From: Patescibacteria group bacterium
Lineage (GTDB): Bacteria > Patescibacteriota > Patescibacteriia > JBDRGY01
DNA: 64,000 nt
Direction of reading: 5' to 3'
Assembly (NCBI GenBank): GCA_043817315.1
Contig: JBDRGY010000001.1
Coordinates: forward strand, 78,702-142,701
Below, piece after piece: positions 1 to 44,256 of the stretch. The notes under the pieces were generated by a model. The model was not told the DNA's origin. It did not search any database and was given only the letters and a program-made list of their open reading frames with translations. Made by a program: the position numbers and the translations under genes. How positions within the stretch are numbered: position 1 is the first letter of the stretch; the number at the start of each line of letters is the position of its first letter.

Positions 1-2270
1 ACAACCAAGCCAATTATAAATACTGGTTGGCTGGAGCCACTTCGGTCAGTCATTTATCTTATACCGAGAAAAAAAGATTATTGGGTGGCCCAAAATTACC
101 GGCCCTAAGAGGATTTGAGTATTATACTGGTGGTTATTTTGATTTAAGTGTTCCATCTTCGGGCAATATGGAGCTATCTTCTACTAACGAAAGAGACGGA
201 GAAACAGCTTTTCAGTTCGATTGGCGCGATAGACACGGTCAAGATTGGATGACTCCGGTAAAAACTCAATATTGTGGGGATTGCTGGGCCCATGCAACGG
301 TAGGGGGGGTTGAGGCAACAATAAACCTGTATTACAGATGGCCTATTGATAAAGATTTATCAGAGCAGCAATTAGTATCTTGTTCTGATGCCGGAGATTG
401 TTCTGGTGGTACCTTTGATCTAGGTTATGTTGCTGATGAGGGACTCGTTGATGAAGATTGTTTTGCTTATGCCGGTGCCGATGTTCCCTGTGAGCTTTGC
501 ACTGATTGGGAGGCTGAAACCTGGAAGATTAGCGGATTCGGAGTTATTCCCAGAGCAACTTATCAATACAAGAAGAATCTACTTCAAAATGGTCCTTTGG
601 TATTAAATTATCGTGCTTGGGCCCATGTTATGGTTATTGCTGGTTTCGGAGAAATTACAGCAGGTGACTACTATGGTCCTGATGATCATAATAATCCTTT
701 TACCATTCCGGCAGATGATCCCCTGATAGGTAAAACCTACTGGATAATAAAAAACAGCTGGAGTGAAGCTTGGGGAGAAGCTGGTTATGGAAAATTTATC
801 ATTCCCGAGGAGACAATTGATGATGGATGGGCTCATGCAGCTGTTAGCCACACCCCAATTATCCCCCCAGATGATTTTCCTCTTGACCCTGTTTGTACCA
901 ACAGTGATGCCGATGACTATTGCTGGTGGGGAATAAGGCCGGAAAAACCAGATGATTGTCCAGCTTCCTGTACTAGCAATAGCCTGGATTGCAACGATAT
1001 GGATGCTGCAGTCGGGGAATGCCCCGATAACTATATCTGTGGCAACCATTCATATTTACCAAGCGGTGAGCAGACAGCTTTCGGTGACTATGATCAATTC
1101 CTAGATTCAAAATGTTGTGGTGATAATCTAGGTGAATACCAAGTGGGTGCTGTTTGCTGTGATAATGAGTATGATATTGAAAGTTTTACCGAAGGTTATT
1201 ACCATATTGGTCAGTATGGTTCTCAAGGATCAGGTGTAGGACAATTTAATAAGCCTACTTATCTGACCATGGCTAATGATAGAATATTTATTGCCGATTC
1301 TCTAAATCACCGGGTCCAGATTTTGGGTATCAATCCTGACAACAGTTTGAATTACCTTAGCCAATTTGGCAGCCTTGGTTCTTTTGATGGGTGGTTTAAC
1401 GAGCCCAAGGGCGTTGCTGTGACAGATAACAAGATTGTTGTATCTGATTTTCAAAACCATAGAGTTCAAATATTTGAAATAAATTATACAAACAATAGCG
1501 TCAGCTATCTCAATAAATTTGGGAGTTATGGAACTGGGCCCGGTCAGTTTAAAAAGCCCAAAGGTTTAGCCATAGATGAACAGAATAGAATATTTGTAAT
1601 TGATGAAGCTGATGGCAATGATAGAGTGCAGATATTCCAGCTAAATCCTGATGGGACAGTTGATTGGTTGGATCAATTCAATGGATCAACAACCCCTGGT
1701 GGCCAATTTAATTTTCCAGTTGATGTTGCTATTGAAGATGATCTGCTTTATGTGCTAGATAAATCTTATAGTAAAATACAAGTATTTAGGATAGAGGCTG
1801 ATAATTCGCAAACTTATATTACGGCCTTTATACCGCCACTCGGTAGCGAATTAGATTTTCCAAATGCAATTTTTGTTGAAGATAGAATCATCTATGTTTC
1901 TGGAGAGCATTCCAGCCATTTACTAGAGCTTAATAATAGCGACGTTATTGAATATATTGGAGAATTCCCTTATGATTTTGATAAATCCTGGGGTATGGCT
2001 AAAAGAAATGATACCCTGTTTGTTGCTGATGCGGATCTTGGCCGTATGGAAATCTTTCAAAACACTCCTTTTCTACAGTGTGTGGCTGCTTGCGAAGATG
2101 GTACGCTTTATGGACAATGTTCAACCGGAAAACCACTGTTTTGCGAAAACGGTGAATTATTCCACGACTGTGAAGAGTGTGGTTGCCCTACTCTCTATGG
2201 CGTTTGTCAATCAGATGGAACCTGCAAGAAGGAAAAGACTAAAATTTTAATCGAAGACCCACTGGATTAA
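1..2270 (+). CDS. Papain-like (C1A) cysteine peptidase fused to an NHL-repeat beta-propeller and a Cys-rich C-terminal region. The gene is 5'-partial: the reading frame is open to the window start, TTG at 27 is only the first in-window start, and no signal peptide or propeptide is present.
   Basis: Catalytic Cys motif QYCGDCWAH, His motif AWAHVMVIAGFG and Asn motif NSWSEAWGEAGYG match the C1A triad. Four or more NHL repeats follow (NHRVQIL, NHRVQIF, DRVQIF). A 6-Cys tail (CVAACEDG...CGCPTLYGVCQSDGTC) ends the protein. Confidence 0.75.
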   Translation, partial: NQANYKYWLAGATSVSHLSYTEKKRLLGGPKLPALRGFEYYTGGYFDLSVPSSGNMELSSTNERDGETAFQFDWRDRHGQDWMTPVKTQYCGDCWAHATVGGVEATINLYYRWPIDKDLSEQQLVSCSDAGDCSGGTFDLGYVADEGLVDEDCFAYAGADVPCELCTDWEAETWKISGFGVIPRATYQYKKNLLQNGPLVLNYRAWAHVMVIAGFGEITAGDYYGPDDHNNPFTIPADDPLIGKTYWIIKNSWSEAWGEAGYGKFIIPEETIDDGWAHAAVSHTPIIPPDDFPLDPVCTNSDADDYCWWGIRPEKPDDCPASCTSNSLDCNDMDAAVGECPDNYICGNHSYLPSGEQTAFGDYDQFLDSKCCGDNLGEYQVGAVCCDNEYDIESFTEGYYHIGQYGSQGSGVGQFNKPTYLTMANDRIFIADSLNHRVQILGINPDNSLNYLSQFGSLGSFDGWFNEPKGVAVTDNKIVVSDFQNHRVQIFEINYTNNSVSYLNKFGSYGTGPGQFKKPKGLAIDEQNRIFVIDEADGNDRVQIFQLNPDGTVDWLDQFNGSTTPGGQFNFPVDVAIEDDLLYVLDKSYSKIQVFRIEADNSQTYITAFIPPLGSELDFPNAIFVEDRIIYVSGEHSSHLLELNNSDVIEYIGEFPYDFDKSWGMAKRNDTLFVADADLGRMEIFQNTPFLQCVAACEDGTLYGQCSTGKPLFCENGELFHDCEECGCPTLYGVCQSDGTCKKEKTKILIEDPLD

Positions 2271-5089: not shown

Positions 5090-6043
5090 TTAAATCCAAC
5101 GTTTTTTTCTAAAGTAGAGAACCATCATCATAACGATGAAAGCGCTCATACCTATAATAACCCAGAAGTCATAAGGCTGTCCAATGAAAGGCATGTGACG
5201 AGTGTTCATGCCGAAGATGGAAGCGATCAAGGTAATTGGCAGTAATATAACCGAAATCATAGTCAGCAATTTCATTATCTCATTAAGACGATTACTGATA
5301 AGAGATTCGTTAGTTTGCTGTAAGGTTTCTATGGCTTCGCGGAAAGACTCCAGGTTGTCCCAGATGTCTTTATCAAGATTGATAATGTTGTCAAAATGGG
5401 TCTGTAATTTGTTAGGAATTACGTGGTTGGGTTTGCCGTCACGGCGACCTAGTAATTTCTGAATAGTATTCTTATGGGCTTGCATGATTTTTCTGAGGTC
5501 AGCAATGTTTTGGCGGATCAGCAATATCTCACCGACCATCCTACGTTCACTCGCCTGAAAGATGCTCTTTTTAACATTACTAATACCCAAGGAGATATGA
5601 TCTAGCATGGGAAAACAATGTACCAACAGTTTATTGATTACGTGATAGAGCATATGGACCGGACCTTGAGCCAGGCAGGCTTCTTTTTCATCCTGATTGG
5701 TTTGGCAGACATTTAGTAAATCGATTAGAGGAGCCAGCTCGTTGCGATGAACTGTAATCAGATAGTTCTGACCGATAAAAAAATCAACTTCAGATGGATA
5801 AATCTGTCTGTTCTGGCGATTATAAACAGGAAAAAGTAAAATCAAAAAAGCATAACCAGGATACTTTTCTACCTTGGGTCGCTGGGTAGGGGAGAGACAA
5901 TCTTTTAGATCTAATTCCTGGAAACTGAAGTTCTTGGCCAGATATTCCCTCTCCTCTGGGCCAAAATTTACAATATCTATCCAGCGATAGTTATTCAGTT
6001 GGACTTCACGAATATTTTTCATAAATATAAAAGGCGCTAACAA
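5090..6043 (-). CDS. corA: CorA-family Mg2+/Co2+ transporter. The start is TTG at 6043; an in-frame ATG lies at 6022.
   Basis: C-terminal two TM helices with the GMN motif (FGMNTRHMPF) and a long cytoplasmic N-terminal domain. Confidence 0.85.
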   Translation of the reverse strand: MLAPFIFMKNIREVQLNNYRWIDIVNFGPEEREYLAKNFSFQELDLKDCLSPTQRPKVEKYPGYAFLILLFPVYNRQNRQIYPSEVDFFIGQNYLITVHRNELAPLIDLLNVCQTNQDEKEACLAQGPVHMLYHVINKLLVHCFPMLDHISLGISNVKKSIFQASERRMVGEILLIRQNIADLRKIMQAHKNTIQKLLGRRDGKPNHVIPNKLQTHFDNIINLDKDIWDNLESFREAIETLQQTNESLISNRLNEIMKLLTMISVILLPITLIASIFGMNTRHMPFIGQPYDFWVIIGMSAFIVMMMVLYFRKKRWI

Positions 6044-7229: not shown

Positions 7230-7258
7230 TTGACCAATCGGCCAAAAAGTGCTATACT
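7230..7258 (+). promoter_or_regulatory. Sigma70 promoter TTGACC-17-TATACT, divergent from the lipoprotein promoter. It is the likely start of the long operon from 7278 to 28232.
   Basis: ttgaccaatcggccaaaaagtgctatact, with -35 at 7230-7235 and -10 at 7253-7258. The first ATG downstream is at 7278. Confidence 0.55.
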
Positions 7259-7277: not shown

Positions 7278-7848
7278 TATGAACAATCAAGACGATATTA
7301 TTTTAGGAGGAGGCGGTCGGGAGCAAAAGGAAATTAATCCTGAAAAGAAAGTAATCCTACCATCGCAAAAAGAGCATCAGCTGGGTGTTAGAGTTGAGGC
7401 TGCTCCAGAAATAGCTACACCGGAACAGAAAGTGGAACAAGAAATCAGCCCGGAGCAAGAAAGGGAATTGGCTAAAGAAGCAGCTAAGCAGGAGGATAAA
7501 GAGAAAATCAGTACTGCCCCAGTACCAACTTCCCCTTCATCAGTTCAGCCAGCCCAACAACAACCCAAGACCGAAATGAGACGCAATATTGAGAAAATCC
7601 TGGCAGAAGATTTGGTGGAGATCTATAATAGTTTAAATGAAGAGGAAAAAAAGGAATTTAAAGCTGAAGGAGAAAGGGTAGCCTCCAAGATTGAGCAGAT
7701 AATGCAGCAAATGAAAATAAAGGCCAAAGAAGTACTAAAGCTGATTCGTGACTGGCTAAAAAAGATCCCAGGTATTAATCGTTTTTTTCTTATTCAAGAA
7801 GCCAAGATAAAAACAGACAGAATCCTGGCTCTAAAAGATAGGCAATAA
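7278..7848 (+). CDS. Hypothetical Glu/Lys-rich protein of 190 aa with a disordered N-terminal half. Its stop overlaps the next start (TAATG). The ORF track extends the gene to a GTG at 7249, which lies inside the promoter.
   Basis: ORF translationally coupled to the ATPase gene. Low-complexity composition rich in E, K, Q and P. No family recognised. Confidence 0.55.
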
Positions 7849-10400
7849 TGAACAGTCTGCCGTCAATTAACACTCCCAGTTTTTCTTGGGACACTATCTT
7901 TAATAATCAGATTTTTGTTATCGTAGCGACTTTAGTAGTCGTTATTTTTGTTCTCTGGTTAATGATATTTACTTTACGTAAAACGATTGCCAGGCAGCGC
8001 CGGCTTTCTAATACCTTTTCCATGGTAACCTTGATGGTTACTGTGCCCAAAGAAAGTCTGGATGAAGACGATGAGCGAAAACCGCTCGAGGAAAAATTGG
8101 CTGTTGCCGAAGCCTTTATGTCCACGGTCGGTGGCATGATCTCTCAAAAGGGGATCAGGGCGTTTCTCTTAGGCCGCTCTGACCACTTTGCTTTTGAGAT
8201 TGTTGCCAACAAAGGATTGATTTCTTTTTATGTCACTGTACCTTGCTATATGCAGCAGTATATGGAACAGCAGATTCAAGCCCAATATCACCGGTCCCAG
8301 ATTGAAGTGGTAGAAGATTACAATATTTTTACCCCACGAGGAGTTATCGAAGCCGCCTACCTCAAGCTGAAAAAGAGATCAATGTTCCCAATTTTAACTT
8401 ATAAAAAGTTAGGATCTGATCCTTTAAATTCCTTAACCAATGTTTTGAGCAAATTTCAGGAAGATGAAGGTGCTGTTCTGCAAATCATGGCCCGGTCTTC
8501 CCATCCGGCTTGGCACAAGGCTGGAGCCAAAGTAGCTACCGAGATGAGCCAGGGGAAAAATGTAAAAGATGCTATGAAATCCAGCAACCCAAGTATTTTA
8601 GGTCAGATTGGCAAGACTGCACTGGCCTCTACCAAGAAGAGTAAAAAAGACGATTACGAATATGATGAACCGAGACGTTTAACTCCCATGGAAGAAGAAA
8701 CGGTAAAGGGTTTGGAAGAAAAAACGGCTAAAGCGGGCTTGGATGTCAACATTAGAATCATAGTCTCTTCACCTGATGGTCAAAGAGCCAAGGCCAATAT
8801 TCGAAACATTGCTGATGCTTTTTCTCAATACAGCGGTTATGAGTATATCAACGCTTTCGTTAAAAAAAGAGTTTGGCGCAAGAGTAAAATTATCAGAGAC
8901 TTCATCTATCGCAATTTCTCTGAGAAGAATAAATTTATATTAAACGCCGAAGAGATAGCTTCCGTTTATCATTTTCCATTGCCCAATACAGAAACACCCA
9001 ATATTCGCTGGTTGGTCGCCAAGAAATCAGCCCCTCCGGTCAACATGCCCCAAGAAGGCTTGATCCTGGGTCGTAATTTCTATCGGGGCCTGGAGACTCA
9101 AATCCGCATTAAAAGAGACGACCGGCGTCGTCATATTTATATCATTGGTAAATCCGGTACTGGAAAATCTGTTTTAATTTCTTCAATGGCTATTCAGGAT
9201 ATTCAGAACGGCGAAGGAGTCTGTGTTGTCGATCCCCATGGTGATTTAATCGAATACATTTTAGCTCACATACCTAAAGAGCGAGCAGAAGACGTGGCCG
9301 TCTTTGCGCCGGCCGATATGGAAAAACCGGTTGGTCTAAATATGTTAGAAGCTGACTCGGTGGAAGATCAGGATTTTGCCATCCAGGAAATGATTGCCAT
9401 TTTCTATAAACTATTCCCGCCGGAGATGATTGGGCCTATGTTCGAACATAATATGAGAAACGTGATGTTGACCCTGATGGCCGACAAAGAAAATCCTGGT
9501 ACTATCGCCGAGATTCCCCGTATGTTTACTGATCCTGCTTTTCAAAAATACAAATTGACTAAAGTAACTGACCCCGTTGTTAGAAATTTTTGGGAGAAAG
9601 AGATGGCTAAAACTACCGATTTTCACAAATCCGAAATGTTGGGTTATCTAATATCGAAAGTAGGCCGCTTTGTCGAAAACGAGATGATGAGGAATATTAT
9701 TGGCCAACCCAAGTCCGGTTTTGACATCAGAGAGATAATGGATAAGCAGAAGATATTACTGGTCAATCTGTCTAAAGGTAAAGTAGGTGAGGTCAATAGC
9801 GACCTTCTGGGCTTGATTATAGTTTCCAAGTTGCAGATGGCTGCCCTCAATCGGGGTGATATTCCCGAGGAAGAACGTAAAGATTTTTATCTCTATATAG
9901 ATGAGTTTCAAAACTATGCTACTGACAGTATTGCCACTATTTTATCCGAGGCCAGAAAGTACCGTCTCAATCTGACCATGGCTCACCAATACATTGGGCA
10001 GTTAGTAAAAAATAATGATACCCAGATCCGCGATGCGGTTTTGGGCACCACTGGTACTATGGTGGCCTTTAAAGTGGGAGTAGACGATGCCGAGGTTATG
10101 GCCAAAGTGTTTGACCCAGTTTTTGACGAGTACGATGTGCTTAATGTTGAAAAGTTTACTGCCTACATTAAGTTACTGGTTGACAACCAGGCCTCTCGCG
10201 CTTTCAACATGCACACCTATCCGCCGGTGCCGGGTAATAAGGAGCTGGCTCATAAGATTAAAGAATTATCACGTTTAAAATATGGCCGACCCAAATCCAA
10301 GGTGCAGGCCGAAATCATGAATCGGTCGCAGTTGGGAGAACCCAGTAAGCCGTCACCATCTTTGGGAACGCAGGATTTAGGTCGGGAACCTAAGGCCTAA
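7848..10400 (+). CDS. VirD4/TraG/TraD-like type-IV coupling-protein-family P-loop ATPase (FtsK-HerA superfamily). It has an N-terminal TM helix and a unique domain of about 350 aa before the ATPase domain.
   Basis: TM helix IFVIVATLVVVIFVLWLMIFTL. Walker A IIGKSGTGKSVLISS, then VVDPHGD, Walker B FYLYIDEFQNY, and the TraG-D C-terminal-like motif LNLTMAHQYIGQL. This is 850 aa, the typical length of a coupling protein. Confidence 0.55.
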   Translation: MNSLPSINTPSFSWDTIFNNQIFVIVATLVVVIFVLWLMIFTLRKTIARQRRLSNTFSMVTLMVTVPKESLDEDDERKPLEEKLAVAEAFMSTVGGMISQKGIRAFLLGRSDHFAFEIVANKGLISFYVTVPCYMQQYMEQQIQAQYHRSQIEVVEDYNIFTPRGVIEAAYLKLKKRSMFPILTYKKLGSDPLNSLTNVLSKFQEDEGAVLQIMARSSHPAWHKAGAKVATEMSQGKNVKDAMKSSNPSILGQIGKTALASTKKSKKDDYEYDEPRRLTPMEEETVKGLEEKTAKAGLDVNIRIIVSSPDGQRAKANIRNIADAFSQYSGYEYINAFVKKRVWRKSKIIRDFIYRNFSEKNKFILNAEEIASVYHFPLPNTETPNIRWLVAKKSAPPVNMPQEGLILGRNFYRGLETQIRIKRDDRRRHIYIIGKSGTGKSVLISSMAIQDIQNGEGVCVVDPHGDLIEYILAHIPKERAEDVAVFAPADMEKPVGLNMLEADSVEDQDFAIQEMIAIFYKLFPPEMIGPMFEHNMRNVMLTLMADKENPGTIAEIPRMFTDPAFQKYKLTKVTDPVVRNFWEKEMAKTTDFHKSEMLGYLISKVGRFVENEMMRNIIGQPKSGFDIREIMDKQKILLVNLSKGKVGEVNSDLLGLIIVSKLQMAALNRGDIPEEERKDFYLYIDEFQNYATDSIATILSEARKYRLNLTMAHQYIGQLVKNNDTQIRDAVLGTTGTMVAFKVGVDDAEVMAKVFDPVFDEYDVLNVEKFTAYIKLLVDNQASRAFNMHTYPPVPGNKELAHKIKELSRLKYGRPKSKVQAEIMNRSQLGEPSKPSPSLGTQDLGREPKA

Positions 10401-10403
10401 ACA

Positions 10404-13190
10404 ATGACCCGGTTAGCAACAAAAACAAAATTAAGAGAAAAAACAGCAGTCGCTTATATCATTTTGACTGCTACTGTTAGCGCAGCGGCTTTAATAGCCG
10501 CTGTTTTTGTTATCTTCCGGGTTAATAGTGTTGATATTGAACCAGCACCAGCCAGAAGTGTTGTTAGCTGCGGTAGTGTCATTACCACGGATACTTTTTT
10601 AACTGCTGATTTGTTGGATTGTACCGGTAATGGTATAGAAATTGGAGCCGATGACATAATTCTTGATTGCCAGGATCATCTGATAACCGGACCAGGTAAG
10701 AGTACTAATTATACTGGAATCGAGATAAACCGTAGGTCTGGAGTAAAGATAAGGGGATGTAATGTTTACAACTTCGGAAAGGGATTTGACGTTCATGGTG
10801 TATTTGGTCAGCCATCTACTAATAATATCTTAATTAATAACGTAGCTTTTAATAATAATTTTGGAATATATATCAAAGAATCATTTGGTAATGGTTTATA
10901 CCGAAACGTAGCTAGCAATAATAATCACGGAATATATATAGGTTATTATACACAGGATAATATTTTAGAAAATAATATTGTTAACGGTAATAACCAGTAC
11001 GGTATTAAGCTGTATAACAGTGATGGGAACAAGTTTATTGCCAATACCGCCAACTGGAACGGTGAAAACCTGAGTGGTGATAAAGATTTTTGGTGTGAAG
11101 GTGGCGTTGACAACCAATGGGAAGATAATTTATGTAAAGGGATTACCGATTGTTCTGGCTTGACATGTTATCAGTATGGGCAGTTTGACTCAACAGGAAT
11201 AAATAATAATTTAGTTTTCAATCCTGGCTTTGAAATGGATTATAGTATTAACTACCAAGGTTGTTATGGCGGGTGTGATCGTGGTTTTGGCAATCATAAA
11301 CCAGACGGTTGGATTTGGGATGACATCGAAGACAACTTTGATTATATAGAGAATGGAGCAGGTTGTTTTAATGAAAGATGCATCAAGCTAAACTCGGTTG
11401 ATGATGAATGGATTGGGGTAGGACAAGTTTTTGAGGTAGAGCCAGCTGAATCCTATACCCTGGTAGCCTATATGAAATACGAAGGCGATGGAACAGATAC
11501 AGCCTATATGCATATCTATGAATGTGCTGAATGGGAAGGTGATTCTTGTGTTAGCGGAGCCGGTTGGACAACGGAAAAAGTCTATGGTAATTCCAGTGAC
11601 TGGGAAAGGGTTGAGATTGATTTTCAATTAGATCCTACAACCAACTATGTAAGAGTTTGGGCCGGGATTTATGATGATCCGGGCAATTATGTGTGGTTAG
11701 ACAATCTACAATTTTCTAAAAATGGGGACCTGGATCAATATACTATTATGGATACCCACGGCCTTCAGACGATAGGGGAACAAGTTTTGGTTAGGCAACA
11801 CGCAATTTTTAATCCCGACGATCCTGCCAACCCCACGCCTGTGAATTATCAGTGGCTGGCTGAGGGTCAGTGGGGTCAGGGCTGGGCTGAAATATCGAGA
11901 GTAGTTCTATCGGAGGATAATGAGATTGGGGAATTTAAAGTAAACCCCTTGAACGATATGTGTTTAAACCAATCAGGACTAAAATGTGAACCGATTGCTG
12001 CTAATAATTATTGCCAGGCTCTGGGTTACGGAGAATATCTGGATGGTACTATGGCTTGTGATGGGGAACAGCACCTAATGGGTAATTGGGCCAACAGCGA
12101 CATCGATCCATTGCATTTCAATTGTGGATCCGGTGGTAGCGACGAGTGGATAGAGAGTATGAGCTGCTTCAAGGCAACACCACCTCCGGAATATTATAAC
12201 CAAGACCACTTTGATACCTATTTTTCACTAATGGATGCGGAATTTTCCTTTTGTGGCGATGGCGTAATTACTGAGACTGCAGAAGAATGTGAGGCTGATG
12301 CAGATTGTGCTACAGGAGAAGAATGTTGGTATTGTAAGTGTGTTAGCAAGCATGAGCCTAATGATACCAACTGCAGCAGTAATTCGGAAAATGGAGAGTA
12401 CCTTCTTCATGGCAATGATACTAAATGGTCCTGCCAGTTGATGACTGTGAAAAGTAACGAAGAAATTAATTTTTTAGATTATATAGTTGATGACGCTATA
12501 GATTGTTGTATTACTCCTCAGGGAATTGTTTCGAATAATCATAGGGAGCTGTGTGATTTTGTCCATTCAGAATATGGGTTCTTAACTTCCAGAGATTGTG
12601 TGACTAGATTTATTGGTACTGGGTTAAGTGATACCCACAATTCTGTTAGTAATTTTGGTAATAAAACCCCCTGGATACAGAATTATTATTACCCGGAACT
12701 ATGTTGTTATGCTGGCAAAGATCGGGGTGACCAATTATGTTCTGATGGAGGGGGCACTCCGGGAATTTGTAGCCCTGATCAAGTAAATGGAATTGCTTAT
12801 AACGATTACGTTTTGGGATTAGATTGTTCTGATTATGATTGTAACTTTCATGATCAATCAGCACTAAAAAGCTCCACAATATTGAATAGCGGTACGTGTG
12901 TTGATTGGTCTTTACTAACCACGACCTTATTGAGAAAGGCAGGCCGGCATTATGCTAATCCGGGGGAAGGTGATCTGATTCTTTCTGCTGATGAGGATGG
13001 CCATTTTGCTAACCTAGTTTGGGTGGATGAGGTCGGTACCTGGGTTTTTATGGACTATGGTAGACTTTACTTTGATCCCGAAAACGCCTGGTGGGACTAC
13101 TGTGATAAAATAGAAGGCTGCGGCCACGAAAATCAATGGTTAGGCTGCACCAGATCTTGGGCTAGTGATAATGTATATGGATGCGATTAA
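10404..13190 (+). CDS. Giant surface protein of 928 aa. It carries an N-terminal TM anchor, right-handed parallel beta-helix repeats, a CBM-like jelly roll, Cys-rich segments and a C-terminal transglutaminase-like Cys-His-Asp core.
   Basis: TM helix AVAYIILTATVSAAALIAAVFVIF. PbH1-type repeats NNNFGIYI, NNNHGIYIGYY and NNQYGIKLYN. NPGFE start of a CBM4/9-like module. Transglutaminase motifs GTCVDWSLLTTTLLRKAGRHYANP and GHFANLVWVDEVGTWVFMDYG. The start is 4 nt after the ATPase stop. Confidence 0.7.
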   Translation: MTRLATKTKLREKTAVAYIILTATVSAAALIAAVFVIFRVNSVDIEPAPARSVVSCGSVITTDTFLTADLLDCTGNGIEIGADDIILDCQDHLITGPGKSTNYTGIEINRRSGVKIRGCNVYNFGKGFDVHGVFGQPSTNNILINNVAFNNNFGIYIKESFGNGLYRNVASNNNHGIYIGYYTQDNILENNIVNGNNQYGIKLYNSDGNKFIANTANWNGENLSGDKDFWCEGGVDNQWEDNLCKGITDCSGLTCYQYGQFDSTGINNNLVFNPGFEMDYSINYQGCYGGCDRGFGNHKPDGWIWDDIEDNFDYIENGAGCFNERCIKLNSVDDEWIGVGQVFEVEPAESYTLVAYMKYEGDGTDTAYMHIYECAEWEGDSCVSGAGWTTEKVYGNSSDWERVEIDFQLDPTTNYVRVWAGIYDDPGNYVWLDNLQFSKNGDLDQYTIMDTHGLQTIGEQVLVRQHAIFNPDDPANPTPVNYQWLAEGQWGQGWAEISRVVLSEDNEIGEFKVNPLNDMCLNQSGLKCEPIAANNYCQALGYGEYLDGTMACDGEQHLMGNWANSDIDPLHFNCGSGGSDEWIESMSCFKATPPPEYYNQDHFDTYFSLMDAEFSFCGDGVITETAEECEADADCATGEECWYCKCVSKHEPNDTNCSSNSENGEYLLHGNDTKWSCQLMTVKSNEEINFLDYIVDDAIDCCITPQGIVSNNHRELCDFVHSEYGFLTSRDCVTRFIGTGLSDTHNSVSNFGNKTPWIQNYYYPELCCYAGKDRGDQLCSDGGGTPGICSPDQVNGIAYNDYVLGLDCSDYDCNFHDQSALKSSTILNSGTCVDWSLLTTTLLRKAGRHYANPGEGDLILSADEDGHFANLVWVDEVGTWVFMDYGRLYFDPENAWWDYCDKIEGCGHENQWLGCTRSWASDNVYGCD

Positions 13191-13205
13191 TTTAATATTT
13201 CTAAT

Positions 13206-13946
13206 ATGAAAATTTCTCCAAAAATTACTTTTCCTATTATTGGATTGATCTGCCTAATTAGTGTCGGATCAGTTTGGGCTTTATCTGACAAAAAAGTTGA
13301 AGCACAGCCAGAGGAAGTCGATGGTATGAGAGCCAATCGCTTAACTATTCAGCCCACTCAAACTATTAATGTTTTAGCTAATGTTCGATACAGCAAGGAT
13401 TTGGAGTCGGTTAATTACACGGTCGGTGAATTATTAAACACTGAGTTTGTCGTCTATAATCAATCAAAACAAAAAATGAGTTTTAAAGTGATCCGAGAAG
13501 TTCTGCCCGATGAGGAAATCACTGAATCCAGAAACGCTGAGTTAAAGTATTTTTCCATGGAACACTACCAAGTACCCTACCTCGAATACACAGTAGATTT
13601 AGCAGGAGAAACAGCTACTGCTATGGAAGTAAAGTCCAAGTATAATAGTTTGCCAGTTAATGGAAAGTTGACATTACCCCGGATAGATATTATTGATATT
13701 GACTCCGGAAGAGTAATTGCTAATTCAAGTCCCACCATAATAAAAATCAATTGTCTGGAAGATAAAACTTGTAACATTAAAAACGGCGAGAACTTCCGCA
13801 ACTGCCCGGCTGATTGTCCTTCTGGATCCGATGATAGTTATTGTGATATGGAAAAAGACGGTAAATGCGATCCCAATTGTTTAATGGAATTAGATAAAGA
13901 TTGTAAGAAAGGAGAGGGGATAACCACTATCCCCAAAATAGAATAG
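13206..13946 (+). CDS. Secreted hypothetical protein of 246 aa with a Cys-rich C-terminus (CDPNCLMELDKDCKKGEGITTIPKIE).
   Basis: Signal peptide MKISPKITFPIIGLICLISVGSVWA. An 8-Cys tail. The gene immediately precedes its larger partner gene. Confidence 0.6.
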   Translation: MKISPKITFPIIGLICLISVGSVWALSDKKVEAQPEEVDGMRANRLTIQPTQTINVLANVRYSKDLESVNYTVGELLNTEFVVYNQSKQKMSFKVIREVLPDEEITESRNAELKYFSMEHYQVPYLEYTVDLAGETATAMEVKSKYNSLPVNGKLTLPRIDIIDIDSGRVIANSSPTIIKINCLEDKTCNIKNGENFRNCPADCPSGSDDSYCDMEKDGKCDPNCLMELDKDCKKGEGITTIPKIE

Positions 13947-13958
13947 AAAAAGGATTTT

Positions 13959-15908
13959 ATGCCCCATCGTCATCTAAACATTACCTTAATCTTTTTAGCC
14001 GCTACCTGGCTGATGGTAGCCAGCTTTTATTTTTGGGAGGATTGGCAGATCGATCCCGCCGCAGGACAAGAAATATTATCCATTACTGGTTATTCTCCTA
14101 CCATTCCGGTCTTAACTCCTGGTTCTACCGGTTTCACTTTGCAGGTCAACACCTCACTGGGGTCAGATTGTAAACATGGTGACCAAGGCCAAACCTATGA
14201 GCAAATGTCTAATCAGTTCAATGGCGACGGTACCTTAATACATACGGCAGAAATTTCCAACTTAGTTAGCGGTCCCACTTACCATTATTATGTCCGCTGC
14301 CAAACCGGAGCTCAGACAACTGAGGAACTGGATCTGAGCTATCGAGTTATACCGGCCATTGATTATGATTTTCCCAGATTAACCAATACCTTTTACGGGG
14401 ATATTAATAATGATAATTTAGATGAATTATCAAGATATGATTTATTAGCGATCACCACTTTTTATCAGAAGGCAGCCCAGCAGAATAAGATTAAAACCAT
14501 TAGGGAATATAATTCGGAAATTACTATTTTGCCGTATCTATTGATTAGAGATACTCACAAAGACCTAACTGATCCCAGTCTGATTGATTATCCGTTAAAG
14601 GAACAAATTTTTGAAAACAATTGGTTCTTATACCAACCTTATACCACGATTGTCGGTGATATTGATGAATACGCTACTTCTATTCAAGTGACTGATATCA
14701 ACAAATTGGATCTTGATTTGGAAGGAGCGGATATAAATAATTATATAGCCGTAGAAGATGAATACATGGAGGTTACTGATATTGTTGGTGATACCTTGAC
14801 TGTGGTACGCGGTCATCAATCAGATGCAGTATCGCATACTGACGGGGATCAGATCAGGGCCCATATTATTCTTTGGCTGGGTTTACATCCTGCCCTTAAC
14901 CTGAGTACTGATTGGAATTTGGCTGTGCCAGAATTTGTGGAGACCACTTTGATCCCCTCCGGACTTTGGGATGGGGTTTATTACGATGCGGTTGCAGAAA
15001 ATCTGTACAGCCGTGGTTTTGATACAGATATTGATAATGATGGAATAGCTGACGATGACGAAACTAAGTTACTGCATAAAGCTGGCATTGGCACGCTTTT
15101 TAATCAAACCAGAAATATCAGCTCTGATATTTATATCGTGGGCAATGGCTATTACACTTTCTATCAATACGGTAATGGTATAGAATATGAAACTTTTACA
15201 GGGTTGGATGGATCTAACTGGTCAGCCCATATGATAGGATATTTAGAATGGCAAGAAAGTGGTTTAGACCCTCATATCGATATAATAAATATGAAATGTA
15301 ACAATAGCGGCAATGATACTTTGTGCCAGCAGGAATACCAAAAAATGCGTTATGGTCTTACCTCAACACTAATCGGAGATGGCTTCTATCTTTTTGACGG
15401 AGGGGGTACTGGACATAATAAACTGTATTGGTTTGATGAATATTCTGTTGATTTGGCTACGGGCATTCCGACCACTCCTACTGCGGAAAATGATTTCGTG
15501 GGAAAGGGTTATCTGGGTCAGCCAAGCGGTGACTACTCGATTTTAGCTAATGGAGTTTACCGCCGTAATTTTGCCAATGGTGTAGTCTTAGTCAATCCAA
15601 CTGAATCAGAACAAGATGTTGAATTGGGAGAGACCCTGCGGCGGATTCAAGGAGTTCAAGATACCAATGTTAATATTGGGGGGGAGGTGTCAATCGTTAC
15701 TATAGCTTCTGAAGACGGCATAGTTCTACTCAGTCAGATTTGTGATGAAGATTGGCAGTGTACTGAATGGTCTGAGTGTATTGACAGTCAACGATCAAGG
15801 ACTTGTACTGATCAAAACGAATGTGGTACCGTAGAAAACCAACCAGTAGGAACTCAAGCGTGTGATTCAAATTCTCCAGCAGATATTTACGATTTATTCT
15901 TAGATTAA
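13959..15908 (+). CDS. Surface protein of 649 aa. It has an N-terminal TM anchor, an FN3-like domain, a putative TIM-barrel glycoside-hydrolase-like domain and the C-terminal 4-Cys module. It is a paralog of the protein at 16036-19158.
   Basis: TM helix LIFLAATWLMVASFYFW. Segments TYHYYVRCQTG, DYDFPRL...RYDLLAI and YWFDEYSVDLATG...VYRRNFANGVVLVNP align with the 16036 protein. C-terminal module DWQCTEWSECIDSQRSRTCTDQNECGT. Confidence 0.65.
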   Translation: MPHRHLNITLIFLAATWLMVASFYFWEDWQIDPAAGQEILSITGYSPTIPVLTPGSTGFTLQVNTSLGSDCKHGDQGQTYEQMSNQFNGDGTLIHTAEISNLVSGPTYHYYVRCQTGAQTTEELDLSYRVIPAIDYDFPRLTNTFYGDINNDNLDELSRYDLLAITTFYQKAAQQNKIKTIREYNSEITILPYLLIRDTHKDLTDPSLIDYPLKEQIFENNWFLYQPYTTIVGDIDEYATSIQVTDINKLDLDLEGADINNYIAVEDEYMEVTDIVGDTLTVVRGHQSDAVSHTDGDQIRAHIILWLGLHPALNLSTDWNLAVPEFVETTLIPSGLWDGVYYDAVAENLYSRGFDTDIDNDGIADDDETKLLHKAGIGTLFNQTRNISSDIYIVGNGYYTFYQYGNGIEYETFTGLDGSNWSAHMIGYLEWQESGLDPHIDIINMKCNNSGNDTLCQQEYQKMRYGLTSTLIGDGFYLFDGGGTGHNKLYWFDEYSVDLATGIPTTPTAENDFVGKGYLGQPSGDYSILANGVYRRNFANGVVLVNPTESEQDVELGETLRRIQGVQDTNVNIGGEVSIVTIASEDGIVLLSQICDEDWQCTEWSECIDSQRSRTCTDQNECGTVENQPVGTQACDSNSPADIYDLFLD

Positions 15909-15909
15909 T

Positions 15910-16035
15910 ATGGCTAATTTTCCTAGAAAGTATGTCTATCCAATCGTGACCGGCGTCAATTGTATAACCGAGCTGGATAAAGATTGTAAACAGGGAGAGG
16001 GAATAACCAATGTTCCCGATATCCCTAAAACCTAA
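15910..16035 (+). pseudogene. Chimeric remnant ORF of 41 aa (MANFPRKYVYPIVTGVNCITELDKDCKQGEGITNVPDIPKT). Its first ~13 residues resemble the signal-peptide start of the 19161/13206 genes and its last ~25 residues match the C-terminus of the 13206 protein.
   Basis: The ORF exactly fills the gap between the 13959 and 16036 genes. MxNFPRKxxYPxV matches MINFPRKIIYPVV of the 19161 protein. CITELDKDCKQGEGITNVPDIPK matches CLMELDKDCKKGEGITTIPKIE at the end of the 13206 protein. The whole middle of a 13206-like gene is absent. Confidence 0.55.
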
Positions 16036-41442: not shown

Positions 41443-41458
41443 TGCTATAATGGGGAGG
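41443..41458 (+). promoter_or_regulatory. Extended -10 element TGCTATAAT followed by GGGGAGG, 1-8 nt upstream of the ATG at 41460. This is a possible promoter for a leaderless or short-leader mRNA. No good -35 box is present.
   Basis: tctgctataatggggaggtATG read directly from the sequence. Confidence 0.3.
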
Positions 41459-41459
41459 T

Positions 41460-41993
41460 ATGTTAGACCTCCCCATTTTTATTATTCTCTTTTTGGCCAT
41501 CATCACTGTGTTTGGTACAGCCGCCTGGGCCGGACTTTTGGCGGCTCCTTTCGTGCCTACCAAGAAAAAGGACATTAAGCGGATGCTTACTCTGGCTCAG
41601 GTAAAGGCCAGTGACCAGATTTACGAACTGGGATCAGGAGACGGCCGGATCGCCCAGGTGGCTGCTAAAGAGTTTGGAGCTCGGGTCCAGGGAATTGAGA
41701 TATCCTTTCTGCCGTATATAATTTCTAAAATCAGGATGAGACTGACCGGATTGTCCGACCGAGTAAAGATTGCTTACGGAAATTTTTATAAAGTTGATCT
41801 GAAAAATGCCGATGTGGTCATTTGTTTTCTGACTCCAATGGCCATGAAGAAACTGAGCCCCAAATTTAGGAAAGAGCTTAAGCAAGGAGCCCGGGTAGTT
41901 TCCTACGCCTTTCCCCTAAAAGATTGGTCACCGCAAAAAGTAAATAAACCCCACAAAGGGGATGTAGCAGTCTTTCTGTACGGAATTGACTGA
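41460..41993 (+). CDS. Membrane-anchored class I SAM-dependent methyltransferase of 177 aa.
   Basis: N-terminal hydrophobic helix. Motif I YELGSGDGRIA and motif II DVVICFL of Rossmann methyltransferases. Confidence 0.7.
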   Translation: MLDLPIFIILFLAIITVFGTAAWAGLLAAPFVPTKKKDIKRMLTLAQVKASDQIYELGSGDGRIAQVAAKEFGARVQGIEISFLPYIISKIRMRLTGLSDRVKIAYGNFYKVDLKNADVVICFLTPMAMKKLSPKFRKELKQGARVVSYAFPLKDWSPQKVNKPHKGDVAVFLYGID

Positions 41994-42117
41994 TTGGTGA
42001 CCCTTTGCTACATTAAAGGTGCCAAAAATAGAAAAAGTCAAACAAAAAGACCTAAAGTAAAAACAGAAGAAAACATCAAAAGAGGCATAAAAAACTAAAT
42101 AAAAAGGAAATAAATAT

Positions 42118-42690
42118 ATGAAAGAAACAAAAATGATCGACCAAAATAAAATGGCCATGATAAAACAAATGATTGAGAGCGCTGCAGCTAGTCTGCAATC
42201 AGCCAAACAAATGGTGATTGAGTTAGCTGGCGGCGATCCTGCCCTGGATCACTCACAAAAAGCAAAAGAAGTCGGTTCCAGCGATGAATCAGAGTCTGGC
42301 CGAGTTATCGAAGGAGTCTTTGACGGGCAAAACATGATTGGCCCCGAAGGCAAACAATATAGTGTGCCAGCCAATTACTCATCCAAGTCTAAATTAGTTG
42401 AGGGAGACACTCTTAAGCTGACCATCACTTCTGATGGGTCATTTATTTATAAGCAGATCGGTCCGGTGGAGCGCAGAAGGATGGTTGGTGCCTTAATCAA
42501 GGATGATAAAACAGGTGAATTTCATGTTTTGGCGGGCGGTAAAGCTTACAGTGTGCTGTTGGCGTCAGTAACTTACTTTAAGGGTGACCCCGATGACGAA
42601 GCAGTGATTCTAGTCCCCAAAGAGGAAGAAAGTACCTGGGCAGCTGTAGAAAACGTTGTTAAGAAAAAATATCAAGAAACAGATAGCTAA
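42118..42690 (+). CDS. Hypothetical protein of 190 aa upstream of dnaX.
   Basis: ORF with AAAGGA 8 nt upstream of the ATG. No family recognised. Confidence 0.5.
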   Translation: MKETKMIDQNKMAMIKQMIESAAASLQSAKQMVIELAGGDPALDHSQKAKEVGSSDESESGRVIEGVFDGQNMIGPEGKQYSVPANYSSKSKLVEGDTLKLTITSDGSFIYKQIGPVERRRMVGALIKDDKTGEFHVLAGGKAYSVLLASVTYFKGDPDDEAVILVPKEEESTWAAVENVVKKKYQETDS

Positions 42691-42720
42691 AAAATTCATA
42701 TAGTATATATCAACCGAAAA

Positions 42721-44256
42721 ATGGCCCTGGCTTTGTATAGAAAATATAGACCACAGACCTTTTCCGAGATGGTTGGTCAAAATCACATCAAGGTAACTCT
42801 GCTAAATGAGATAGAAGCGAATAGAGTGGCCCACGCTTATTTATTTACAGGACCGAGGGGTATCGGAAAAACCACAACCGCTCGTCTTTTGGCCAAGGCC
42901 GTAAATTGTCACCATCCCAAAAAAGGAGAACCTTGTGATAATTGTGACTTCTGCCGAGAAATTAAAGAAGCTCACTCTATTGATCTGATTGAGATTGATG
43001 CTGCCTCCCATACCGGAGTAGACAACGTGCGGGAAAATATTATAGAGAATGCCCGCTTTGCTCCGTCCCGGTCAAAATTTAAAGTGTTTATTATCGACGA
43101 AGTACACATGCTTTCGATATCTGCCTTTAATGCCTTACTTAAGATTATTGAGGAACCGCCTGAGCATGTGATATTTATTTTAGCTACCACTGAGGTGCAT
43201 AAGGTGCCAGAAACTATTATCTCCCGATGTCAGCGTTTCGATTTCAAAAAAATCAACTACATAGATATTGTAAACCGACTTAACTGGATAATTGAGCAGG
43301 AGAAAATCAAAGTTGATAAGTCCATTTTAGAAATTATCGCTCGTCGGGCTGATGGTAGTATCCGTGACGGAGAAAGTATTTTGGGCCAAGTGTTAGCCCT
43401 GGACGAAAAAGAGATTAATTATGACCAAGCAATGTTGATCCTGCCTCGTTCCGATATCCAATTGGTGTTTCAATTGGTCCAGCATCTTGTCAAAAAAGAT
43501 GCCAGTGCCGGCATTGGCTTGGTTAACAAATTATTAGAGGAGGGAGTAAATCTAGTCCAGTTTAATTACGAGTTAATAGAATTTTTAAGAAAACTGATAT
43601 TGATTAAAGTAGTGGGAAGTCTAGACACCTTTTCCGCCCTGGAGTTCGACAAGGACACTGAAAAAGAGATTCTGGAAATAAGTCAATCAGCCGATCTGGA
43701 TCTGCTAATGACCATGATTAAGAAATTCATCGGGATTGAGCGGGATCTAAAAACAGCTACAGATTTACCCCAGTTACCTTTGGAATTGGTAGTAGTGGAA
43801 CTATGCCAAGAAGAGGGGAGAGATAATGACGATACTAGTCCACCTCAACCAGAACAGGTAAAATCTACTGCCAAGCCGCCAAAGGAAAAAAGTAAACCAG
43901 CCAAAAAAGCCGATCCCAAAGCTATCCTGCCCCAAAAACAAGCAGAAAAATTTTGGAATAAAACCATTAAAGAATTATCAAAAGAAAACCATTCTCTAGC
44001 CCTGATGTTAAGAACTGGTTTTCTGGCGGATATGGAAGGTAATCAGATTATGATAGGCGTTTCTTATCAGATACATTTTGATCATTTGAAGAGACCTAAG
44101 AACCTGGAGCTTATCGAAAATACCTATAGGAAAATATCTGGTCAGCCCACAAAGATTAAGATTGTATTATCAGAAAAAAGAGAAACTAAAGAAGAGGAAA
44201 AGACAAATTCATTTGATTCTGTTTTACAGACTTTTGGAGGTAAAGTAGTTAATTAA
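42721..44256 (+). CDS. dnaX: DNA polymerase III subunit gamma/tau
   Basis: YRPQTFSEMVGQ, Walker A GPRGIGKTTTARLLAKAVNC, zinc-module Cys (CHHPKKGEPCDNCDFC), DEVHML and the sensor SRCQRF. Confidence 0.9.
   Translation: MALALYRKYRPQTFSEMVGQNHIKVTLLNEIEANRVAHAYLFTGPRGIGKTTTARLLAKAVNCHHPKKGEPCDNCDFCREIKEAHSIDLIEIDAASHTGVDNVRENIIENARFAPSRSKFKVFIIDEVHMLSISAFNALLKIIEEPPEHVIFILATTEVHKVPETIISRCQRFDFKKINYIDIVNRLNWIIEQEKIKVDKSILEIIARRADGSIRDGESILGQVLALDEKEINYDQAMLILPRSDIQLVFQLVQHLVKKDASAGIGLVNKLLEEGVNLVQFNYELIEFLRKLILIKVVGSLDTFSALEFDKDTEKEILEISQSADLDLLMTMIKKFIGIERDLKTATDLPQLPLELVVVELCQEEGRDNDDTSPPQPEQVKSTAKPPKEKSKPAKKADPKAILPQKQAEKFWNKTIKELSKENHSLALMLRTGFLADMEGNQIMIGVSYQIHFDHLKRPKNLELIENTYRKISGQPTKIKIVLSEKRETKEEEKTNSFDSVLQTFGGKVVN

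Follow-up and report, generated by a model that had tools for sequence, protein, structure and literature searches.

A chromosomal VirD4/TraG-type ATPase with a DUF8128 domain in Patescibacteria, probably domesticated from conjugative coupling proteins and followed by an apparent insertion of giant surface-protein genes

Main finding

The 64-kb stretch of Patescibacteria DNA that was analysed here (the window) encodes an 850-aa membrane-anchored protein which, judged by its sequence, is a VirD4/TraG-type ATPase rather than a VirB4, FtsK or HerA protein, and which stands outside any type IV secretion system (T4SS) or conjugation locus. The explanation that we favour, with moderate confidence, is a joint one: the gene encodes a chromosomal, vertically inherited, domesticated coupling protein (T4CP) ATPase of Patescibacteria that acts with a T4SS, an array of giant surface-protein genes was inserted downstream of it, and its family descends from the coupling proteins of monoderm conjugative elements using Replic_Relax relaxases.

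Organisation of the ATPase gene

The gene and the parts of its product were located as follows.

Positions 7848 to 10400, plus strand: gene of the 850-aa membrane-anchored protein with DUF8128 and a VirD4/TraG-type ATPase (ORF call, Pfam, alignment, fold search)
Positions 7911 to 7976, plus strand: single transmembrane helix (residues 22-43) with a basic stretch after it (Kyte-Doolittle, alignment)
Positions 8010 to 9047, plus strand: N-terminal cytoplasmic domain (Pfam DUF8128), residues ~55-400, with a predicted fold like the N-terminal domain of VirB4
Positions 9060 to 10337, plus strand: T4CP-type ATPase domain, residues ~405-830 (Pfam, PDB profiles, Foldseek, motifs, secondary structure)
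Positions 9147 to 9170, plus strand: Walker A motif
Residues ~505-618, plus strand: helical insertion
Positions 9882 to 9914, plus strand: Walker B motif
Positions 9981 to 9989, plus strand: AHQ motif

The ORF call, Pfam and the alignment agreed with the original prediction of an 850-aa protein with one transmembrane helix, an N-terminal domain of about 350 aa and a VirD4/TraG-type P-loop ATPase. The overlap of its start with the preceding stop (TAATG) was confirmed, the TAA lying at 7846-7848 and the ATG at 7848-7850, and so was the tight spacing to the first giant gene, with the stop codon at 10398-10400, the next ATG at 10404 and 3 nt between them. The ATPase ORF ends at 10400, and the end coordinate given previously (10404) already belongs to the following gene, as its first base.

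The transmembrane helix (residues 22-43) has a mean Kyte-Doolittle value of 3.28 and is directly followed by RKTIARQRR; an N-out, C-in topology is therefore predicted. An N-terminal membrane anchor joined to a cytoplasmic motor, as in T4CPs, was thus found, with one helix rather than the usual two. The domain that follows had been called unique. Its size of about 350 aa held, while its uniqueness did not, as the domain is Pfam PF26449 (DUF8128), which lies N-terminal to the ATPase in the precomputed Pfam annotation of an identical database protein (P0001) and of all the top matches; the Pfam copy used to scan the window did not include a DUF8128 model, and the assignment comes from the precomputed database annotation. 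The predicted fold of this domain is that of a VirB4-type N-terminal domain. The NCBI name of the identical protein is 'type IV secretory system conjugative DNA transfer family protein'.

Assignment of the ATPase to a family

The motor matched Pfam T4SS-DNA_transf with 44.9 bits against a gathering score of 20.1 (residues 423-751), TrwB_AAD_bind with 35.3 bits against 20.5, and TraG-D_C with 24.0 bits against 22 (residues 680-749). Across an alignment of 30 homologues, in which columns were on average 63% identical, there was no variation in Walker A (G434-S441), Walker B (D679-N689) or H713-Q714, and A712 was conserved in at least 90%. In the AF2 model the stretch from Walker A to Walker B contains a helical block (residues 505-618), a candidate counterpart of the all-alpha domain of TrwB; the full-length model had low confidence in the last third of the ATPase (pLDDT <50 at residues ~700-790).

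Profile searches, which had been proposed as the way to choose among TraG/VirD4, HerA/FtsK and TraC/VirB4, pointed to the VirD4/TraG type. The sole sequence matches in the PDB were the T4CPs TrwB and DotL, and Foldseek with the ATPase half of the model gave TrwB, Cag-beta and DotL (E 1e-7 to 1e-5 over ~350-430 columns). The NCBIfam equivalog cut-offs for named T4CPs (CD1115 family, TraD) were far off, the best score being 43.9 bits against 250. TrwB, VirD4, Cag-beta and DotL have, like the window protein, a P-loop motor, and the helical insertion in their motors may correspond to the helical block of the window protein. In these canonical T4CPs, however, the transmembrane segment, usually of two helices, leads straight into the motor without the VirB4-like domain of about 350 aa, and the partners are relaxases or dedicated adaptor complexes.

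The other ATPase identities were rejected. The window protein and VirB4 (TrwK of R388) have the predicted N-terminal domain fold in common, whereas the motor sequence is not VirB4-like: there was no AAA_10 or CagE_TrbE_VirB Pfam match, TIGR00929 scored 15 against 643 bits, and hhalign against a Gram-positive plasmid AAA_10 VirB4 gave a probability of 1.4%, with 14-18% identity. FtsK/SpoIIIE and HerA come, like the window protein, from the broad superfamily of ASCE P-loop translocases. An FtsK/SpoIIIE identity was discarded with no FtsK_SpoIIIE Pfam match at E <= 0.01, no multi-transmembrane N-terminus and no gamma domain. A HerA identity was discarded as well: DUF87 scored above its gathering cut-off (29.0 bits) and covered residues 427-526 only, the Walker A region, and no HerA structure stood among the top fold matches.

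Relatives of the ATPase

Outside its own family, the nearest relatives of the ATPase are coupling proteins encoded near VirB4 genes on plasmids of Bacillus (NZ_CP086062, NZ_OX419568), Embleya (NZ_CP108778) and Natrinema (pNVE500), with a Replic_Relax relaxase (MOB_L-type) adjoining in Bacillus and Embleya. The gene of the Bacillus plasmid homologue lies directly before a Replic_Relax relaxase gene and 2.8 kb upstream of an AAA_10 VirB4 gene, and a like arrangement was seen in B. subtilis and on the Embleya and Natrinema plasmids, with no relaxase annotated in the pNVE500 stretch examined. In a contig resembling a mobile element, a 54%-identical motor is encoded 1.2 kb away from a Replic_Relax gene. 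Pfam DUF87, TrwB_AAD_bind or TraG-D_C was found in the plasmid proteins. The Bacillus coupling proteins have the same two-domain body as the window ATPase, an N-terminal domain followed by a T4CP motor, and hhalign against the Bacillus protein gave a probability of 99.9 and an E value of 2e-36 over 650 aligned columns that include the N-terminal domain. In contrast to the window gene, the plasmid genes lie in operons with VirB4 and other transfer genes, and their motors are just 23-29% identical to that of the window ATPase. We relied mainly on the pairwise identities and hhalign because the neighbour-joining tree of the motor domain is rough, with poorly supported deep nodes. Clustering of the ATPase with conjugative coupling proteins was the outcome that the original prediction had named as speaking against it, and this has largely come about, plasmid and mobile-element coupling proteins being its nearest relatives outside the family.

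Within Patescibacteria the family is very large. A database search with the ATPase gave more than 5,000 matches, the best 120 of which were full length and 57-82% identical, some of them on contigs up to 1.3 Mb, and 6,082 clusters were obtained at 50% identity (E <= 1e-30). These numbers, like the strong conservation of the sequence, speak for a vertically inherited core gene. Other proteins combine the motor with TPR or receiver domains, and these fusions gave no clear functional hint. No Pfam domain was found in the C-terminal extensions of 800-1,200 aa that some members carry, and a search with the N-terminal domain alone returned truncated Patescibacteria fragments only, with no new architectures.

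Orphan T4CP homologues located away from virB4 have already been published for Patescibacteria (Quinonero-Coronel et al. 2025, PMC12102498), and the window ATPase is a further member. That paper counts 5,713 VirD4-type T4CP homologues, about two per genome and only 148 of them near virB4, and finds them in 2,918 of the 3,035 genomes; these are T4CP homologues in general and may not equal the DUF8128 family. The orphan homologues are described there as chromosomal, nearly universal in the phylum, mostly encoded far from virB4 and without a relaxase, like the window gene. VirB4 was present in 2,417 genomes and relaxases were almost absent; in Southlakia the T4CP homologue was dispensable while the T4SS was essential (PMC12102498). 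The DUF8128 domain, the VirB4-like fold, the dnaX-linked synteny and the giant-gene insertion do not appear in the available part of that paper. Wang et al. (PMC10633639) described an essential T4SS cluster without a recognisable coupling protein.

Gene neighbourhood and the giant-gene array

The ATPase gene lies in the following surroundings.

Positions 7230 to 7258, plus strand: promoter-like site TTGACC-17 nt-TATACT with TG, just 5' of up199 (consensus match only)
Positions 7279 to 7848, plus strand: up199, small acidic low-complexity protein (ORF call, homologue alignment)
Positions 10404 to 41422, plus strand: eleven co-directional surface-protein genes, 246-1456 aa (ORF calls, Pfam, synteny)
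Positions 41449 to 41477, plus strand: hairpin with an 11-bp stem and then a T-run, at the 3' edge of the insert, overlapping the methyltransferase start codon (pattern match only)
Positions 41460 to 41993, plus strand: MT177, 177-aa SAM-dependent methyltransferase with an N-terminal transmembrane helix (Pfam, synteny)
Positions 42118 to 42690, plus strand: p190, conserved protein of about 190 aa between the methyltransferase and dnaX (synteny, homologues)
Positions 42721 to 44256, plus strand: dnaX (DNA polymerase III gamma/tau), end of the syntenic block (Pfam, synteny)

Comparison of 83 related Patescibacteria loci showed a conserved order of small acidic protein, ATPase, membrane methyltransferase, p190 and dnaX. 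In 59 of 78 loci an up199 homologue preceded the ATPase by at most two genes; p190 was present in 48 of 57 and dnaX in 44 of 57. This linkage to dnaX is that of ABY1-type genomes; more distant members of the family are linked to gyrAB/pheST or scpAB. The up199 ORF opens at the GTG at 7249, and the homologue alignment starts at the Met of the ATG at 7279. The protein has no transmembrane helix and carries the conserved C-terminal motif IPGVNKFFLEQEAKIKTDKI; profile searches found no Pfam, NCBIfam or PDB relative, and no homology to it could be detected in the small ORFs that precede two distant members of the ATPase family (L089 and L090). MT177, usually the gene directly downstream of the ATPase in related genomes, matched the NCBIfam protein-lysine N-methyltransferase NF041081 with an E value of 3e-28, below the cut-off. 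For p190 there was no significant PDB, Pfam or NCBIfam relative, the best PDB profile match being DotY (E 0.16, not significant). An operon may start at the promoter-like site at 7230-7258; sites of this kind were no more numerous in the region than expected from shuffling, and the promoter and terminator scans, being at chance level, give weak hints.

The original prediction that VirB4, VirB6 and relaxase genes are absent from the window was borne out by Pfam and phmmer, while its statement on pilins is less firm, as such scans could miss short pilins of the VirB2 type. All major ORFs of the window were scanned with Pfam, and none matched a VirB4 (AAA_10 or CagE_TrbE_VirB), VirB6 or relaxase family; phmmer with plasmid VirB4, relaxase, PrgI and conjugal-transfer proteins matched the ATPase itself and nothing else in the window. 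In none of the 83 loci was a relaxase, VirB4 or PrgI homologue present within 10 kb, and linkage to relaxase or mating-pair-formation genes was seen neither in the window nor within that distance in these loci.

The window keeps both conserved flanks of the ATPase. MT177, p190 and dnaX are found again at 41460-44256, and the 31-kb array between them and the ATPase (10404-41422) is therefore taken as an insertion after the ATPase gene. By synteny, the giant genes thus appear to be a lineage-specific insertion and not conserved partners of the ATPase. Their products contain beta-helix, GHL15, CBM, fn3, FG-GAP and C25 peptidase domains and MopE-type Cys motifs, and all eleven have an N-terminal basic stretch and a hydrophobic helix, as is typical of Sec-type signals or anchors, and would therefore need no T4CP. 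GC content showed no clear step at the edges of the insert, and Pfam found no integrase, relaxase or transposase in the window. The gap of 3 nt and the common direction of the eleven giant genes make co-transcription likely, and the array is probably transcribed together with the ATPase.

Whether orthologues always adjoin giant genes had been put forward as a check. Of 68 other loci, only 4 had an ORF of at least 800 aa as the next gene after the ATPase, in addition to the window and its 81% relative L004, against ~1% elsewhere in these loci, and the four large ORFs were mostly unrelated to each other and to the giants of the window. Since large ORFs are somewhat commoner at this junction than elsewhere, a weak link to surface proteins is possible.

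Discussion

The most likely role of the ATPase is that of substrate receptor and motor for a chromosomal relaxase-less T4SS, or of an exapted motor. With its order of one N-out/C-in transmembrane helix, a DUF8128 domain of about 350 aa with a VirB4-N-like predicted fold, and a T4CP-type P-loop motor, the protein would form a membrane-associated hexamer, dock through the VirB4-like domain, and use ATP to recruit substrate (protein or DNA) and feed it to the T4SS, which would be encoded elsewhere in the genome in most Patescibacteria. The gene would have been domesticated into a housekeeping neighbourhood, without relaxase or mating-pair genes nearby. Cooperation of the ATPase with a T4SS is what we infer from this set of features.

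A role independent of any T4SS, with the motor exapted for DNA uptake or translocation (competence, nucleotide scavenging) or for replication or segregation, is a rather unlikely alternative overall, and one that several observations favour. The 83 loci show no linkage to T4SS genes, family members are linked to dnaX, gyrAB/pheST or scpAB, the motor also occurs in fusions with TPR or receiver domains, the sequence is more strongly conserved than is usual for a conjugation protein, and the essential T4SS cluster has no recognisable coupling protein (PMC10633639). Such a role fits the published data at least as well as one with a T4SS, because genomes with T4CP homologues (2,918) outnumber those with VirB4 (2,417) and the T4CP homologue of Southlakia is dispensable although its T4SS is essential (PMC12102498). 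The synteny with dnaX may, however, be neutral conservation of gene order within one class, and both the VirB4-like fold of the N-terminal domain and the near relationship with T4CPs linked to relaxases suggest a partner of the T4SS type. At least the Saccharibacteria have FtsK, as two TM7x transcriptome papers reportedly suggest, so that a missing FtsK need not be filled; the idea that the ATPase substitutes for it, which nothing else supports, was dropped.

The original prediction had made the ATPase a motor dedicated to export or assembly of the giant surface proteins. The close spacing, common direction and likely co-transcription of the genes agree with it, and L004 and four other loci also carry a large anchored surface-protein gene at this junction, at ~6-7x the background. 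The ATPase is nevertheless equally conserved in the 64 of 68 related loci that lack a large ORF at this place. Most of the inserted ORFs bear no relation to one another, each of the giant proteins carries a Sec-type signal or anchor at its N-terminus, and the homologous plasmid motors adjoin relaxases. As substrates, T4CPs take cytoplasmic proteins or relaxase-DNA complexes and not those of Sec. This role is largely refuted by synteny and is now very unlikely. It is more improbable still that the gene is the remnant of an integrated conjugative or mobilisable element with the giant genes as its cargo. Close motor relatives do occur in mobile-element-like contexts with relaxase, toxin-antitoxin and transposase genes. 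The housekeeping flanks, however, are conserved across 83 species-level loci, the catalytic motifs are invariant under strong purifying selection, GC content has no clear step at the edges of the block, and none of the predicted attachment-site repeats, integrase or patchy strain-level presence of the ATPase was seen here.

A more speculative extension of the domesticated coupling protein, which we consider improbable, is a VirB4/VirD4 'hybrid': with its VirB4-type N-terminal domain, the ATPase would be a core relaxase-independent housekeeping motor, perhaps a cytoplasmic gate for DNA or protein exchange at the epibiont-host interface, with up199, MT177 and p190 as partners, and the junction after it would be a recurrent landing site for adhesin-like genes through a real functional or expression link.

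As a caution, finding an ATPase gene tightly packed with giant surface-protein genes in one genome does not count as evidence that the ATPase is dedicated to their secretion. Much of bacterial diversity belongs to the Patescibacteria, which are dependent on host cells, and their relaxase-less T4SS is essential in the one species that is genetically tractable. The DUF8128-T4CP family, with its thousands of clusters at 50% identity, is very widely distributed and highly conserved, and it may provide this system with the coupling component that is missing, or be a motor repurposed for another task. Its VirB4-type N-terminal domain and the three conserved small partners next to dnaX offer handles for experiments and on the divergence of VirB4 and VirD4.

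The ATPase is a member of the type IV coupling protein superfamily

The original prediction had described the 850-aa ATPase of the window as a VirD4/TraG-type protein with one transmembrane (TM) helix, a unique N-terminal domain and an AHQ motif, encoded at tight junctions with its neighbours. The following features were found.

7846-7850, +: TAATG overlap of the stop codon (TAA) of the small upstream ORF with the ATG of the ATPase
7848-10400, +: ATPase ORF, 850 aa
10404, +: ATG of the first giant surface-protein gene

The start overlap was present as described, and so was the tight 3' junction, its reported 4 nt being an ATG located 3 bases past the ATPase stop. The sole strongly hydrophobic helix (residues 22-43) is the predicted TM helix and is followed by a basic stretch. 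Pfam assigned residues ~420-751 to the VirD4/TraG group (T4SS-DNA_transf, 44.9 bits; TrwB_AAD_bind, 35.3; TraG-D_C, 24.0; each above its cut-off); the DUF87 match was only partial, and no VirB4-type or FtsK-type Pfam match was found in the protein. NCBIfam gave only matches far below threshold, the best being VirD4/TraD models, and a profile of 30 homologues matched no PDB sequences other than those of TrwB and DotL. Between TraG/VirD4, HerA/FtsK and VirB4, the profile searches thus favoured the first. Walker A (G434-S441), Walker B (D679-N689) and H713-Q714 were invariant in the alignment of the 30 homologues and A712 was at least 90% conserved, which bears out the AHQ motif. Mean column identity in this alignment was 63%, with long invariant runs (e.g., FYKLFPPE.IGPMFEHNMRN.MLTL); for a protein of the conjugation type, such conservation is unusually high. 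The N-terminal domain is not unique, since it is already Pfam PF26449 (DUF8128), a name of which no mention was found in the literature searched.

Pfam scans of every sizeable ORF of the window detected housekeeping, glycosyltransferase, protease and surface-protein domains and, as predicted, no VirB4, VirB6 or relaxase. The ATPase was the only match in the window when phmmer was run with plasmid VirB4, relaxase, PrgI and transfer proteins. Because the ORF, junction, TM, Pfam, profile and motif results and the searches for type IV secretion system (T4SS) genes agree, the initial observation is confirmed: the ATPase is a bona fide member of the type IV coupling protein (T4CP) superfamily.

Conserved neighbourhood and insertion of the giant genes

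The neighbourhood of the ATPase is conserved and of housekeeping character. ORFs were called in three Pfam-annotated loci and 80 species-level genome loci and compared with the window proteins. A recurrent plus-strand order was observed: up199 (acidic, ~160-200 aa), ATPase, MT177 (a TM-anchored methyltransferase of 177 aa), p190 (~190-270 aa) and dnaX. Ahead of up199, the opposite strand carries CorA, a Clp-like AAA gene or both. Near ATPase homologues, up199 was detected in 59 of 78 loci, p190 in 48 of 57, dnaX in 44 of 57 and MT177 in 31 of 57. The corresponding window genes are listed below.

5090-6043, -: CorA, upstream flank
7279-7848, +: up199
41460-41993, +: MT177
42118-42690, +: p190
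42721-44256, +: dnaX

MT177, which in related genomes usually follows the ATPase as the very next gene, is anchored by an N-terminal TM helix and is similar to archaeal protein-lysine N-methyltransferases, at a score short of the cut-off (NF041081, E 3e-28). No significant relatives of up199 and p190 were found in Pfam, NCBIfam and PDB; the best PDB match of the p190 profile, the Legionella coupling complex subunit DotY (E 0.16), is not significant and serves as a lead only. The invariant C-terminal core of p190 (alignment A3) reads EGvFdGqnM.GpdGk.YsvPaNYaSKSKLveGD.LKLtI... The upstream CorA lies within conserved synteny in many related loci, and with a second CorA-type Mg2+ transporter paralogue (44408-45421, +) it flanks the conserved block.

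The window differs from the related loci by 31 kb holding eleven co-directional surface-protein genes, the giants (10404-41422), between the ATPase and MT177. Since the window keeps the exact flanks yet has these 31 kb extra, the giant genes were inserted into an otherwise conserved block. The original prediction had the ATPase dedicated to export or assembly of the giants; the synteny comparison speaks against this, the giants having been inserted between the ATPase and its conserved neighbours. Nor are orthologues always beside giant genes: an ORF of at least 800 aa directly follows the ATPase in just 4 of 68 other loci (L002, L010, L018 and L034), and in L004, an 81%-identical relative, a large ORF after the ATPase is cut by the contig end. 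The inserts in other loci mostly share no relationship with each other or with the window giants. Because large ORFs are several times more frequent there than the ~1% background of these loci, which are not phylogenetically independent, the junction after the ATPase may be a favoured landing site. All eleven giants and the inserts of other loci have a basic stretch and hydrophobic helix at the N-terminus and, by this signature, have the appearance of normal Sec-exported or anchored proteins.

The giants form a paralogous array (31850 and 34978 are 50% identical, with 28317 related to both; 13959/16036 and 22150/37925 are further related pairs). Most carry a Cys-rich module of ~45-55 aa at or near the C-terminus (50-69% identity), and one, of 1,456 aa, is a gingipain-type (C25) peptidase that includes its propeptide. 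Downstream of the last giant the following was predicted.

41449-41477: strong hairpin with an 11-bp stem that includes 6 GC pairs, then a T-run, 27 nt past the last giant's stop

This hairpin encloses the predicted MT177 ATG (41460) and the GGAGG just upstream of it, and may act as a terminator for the inserted block or obstruct translation of MT177.

Family distribution and relatives on mobile elements

The ATPase is one of a very large Patescibacteria family that is inherited vertically. The NCBI protein identical to it is named 'type IV secretory system conjugative DNA transfer family protein [Patescibacteria group]'. Among more than 5,000 database homologues, the best 120 aligned from end to end at 57-82% identity, with lengths of 749-894 aa (mostly 830-890); the contigs that carry them are in many cases 0.2-1.3 Mb long. 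When 50%-identity representatives were searched exhaustively, 22,789 relatives passed E <= 1e-3, and 6,082 passed E <= 1e-30. Around chromosomal members at greater distance (36-42% identity), the genes are again of housekeeping type (pheST and gyrAB; ribosomal genes, dnaK and scpAB). These loci contain no T4SS genes, and a small acidic ORF lies upstream, without detectable homology to up199.

Some family members have an extra C-terminal extension of 800-1,200 aa with no Pfam domain, and in other proteins a 46-52% identical motor is fused either to a TPR-repeat region of ~960 aa or to the receiver domain of a response regulator (extension and fusion proteins: P0192, P0195, P0200, P0201, P0203, P0207-P0209 and 10001-16021 of locus L089). 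Loci with a named lineage come from Falkow-, Uhr-, Kerfeld-, Kuenen-, Komeili-, Buchanan-, Jackson- and Veblenbacteria, which are presumably members of GTDB class ABY1. Many contigs (L004, L005, L009 and others) are titled 'uncultured Gammaproteobacteria' or 'Pirellulales', with gene content and best protein matches of Patescibacteria; the taxonomy of these MAGs is probably mislabelled in public records.

A tblastn search against plasmids gave 616 records, chiefly from Bacillus, Streptomyces, Natrinema and Sulfolobus, with alignments often beginning near residue 108 and so covering much of the N-terminal domain. The Bacillus homologue (904-913 aa, 'DUF87 domain-containing protein') is directly followed by a Replic_Relax relaxase, then by transfer genes and an AAA_10 VirB4; on an Embleya plasmid the homologue has a VirB4-like ATPase on one side and a Replic_Relax gene on the other, PrgI being encoded upstream and an NlpC/P60 hydrolase downstream; that of Natrinema pNVE500 comes after a large transfer ATPase and a pilin. 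With hhalign, the family profile matched the Bacillus protein (probability 99.9, E 2e-36, 650 columns, 103-813 versus 43-734) and gave nothing against the VirB4 of the same plasmid. Proteins with a different N-terminus and a 50-60% identical motor were found in mobile-element-like contexts: P0211 has a Replic_Relax gene 1.2 kb away and is accompanied by HTH_17 and toxin-antitoxin genes, and P0259 adjoins toxin-antitoxin genes and a transposase. Locus L092 holds such a stretch.

5828-12568 of L092: 554-aa DUF87 ATPase, Replic_Relax relaxase, T4CP, HTH_17 gene and PhdYeFM/PIN pair

The L092 T4CP has a motor 54% identical to that of the window ATPase and a different N-terminus, and the stretch is a candidate for the element type from which the chromosomal family derives.

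Motor-domain identity to the ATPase was 40-75% in the family, 45-60% for mobile-context variants, 23-33% for plasmid T4CPs and 14-18% for VirB4s; a rough NJ tree, weak at its deep nodes, agreed. The kinship of the ATPase is with relaxase-linked coupling proteins. Its nearest outside relatives are coupling proteins beside Replic_Relax relaxases and VirB4 genes on plasmids, and in a mobile-element-like contig; a clustering with conjugative coupling proteins was one part of what the original prediction had named as speaking against its reading.

Predicted structure

The full-length AF2 model was moderate (pLDDT 71) and poor at residues ~700-790; the N-terminal domain modelled alone was confident (pLDDT 88.4, pTM 0.86). 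In Foldseek searches of PDB with the full-length model, TrwK/VirB4 came top (E 8.5e-11) over ~918 columns including gaps and both domains; TrwB, Cag-beta and DotL matched just the motor half. The predicted fold of the N-terminal domain is VirB4-like. The ATPase thus joins an N-terminal domain of VirB4 type to a motor whose sequence is of VirD4 type, the same layout as in the Bacillus plasmid coupling proteins.

Published context and proposed role

In the survey text of Quinonero-Coronel et al. (2025, PMC12102498), VirB4 is reported in 2,417 of 3,035 Patescibacteria genomes, as a monophyletic clade inside the monoderm MPF-FATA class. VirD4-type T4CP homologues number 5,713 in 2,918 genomes, just 148 of them near virB4, and relaxases only 109; class ABY1 T4SS loci often contain comF, recG and radA. 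The same text reports the Southlakia T4CP homologue as non-essential and other T4SS genes as essential, and states that exaptation 'cannot be ruled out'. Wang et al. (2023, PMC10633639) found the T4SS of Southlakia to be essential and could recognise neither a coupling protein nor a relaxase in its cluster, and a 2025 review repeats the Southlakia and T4CP points (PMC12857230). The general phenomenon noticed in the original prediction is therefore already described, and a few descriptive points are new here.

We infer that the ATPase would form a membrane hexamer feeding substrates to a chromosomal T4SS encoded elsewhere or, alternatively, would have been exapted for another translocation task, and that the inserted giants would ride on transcription of the ATPase operon.
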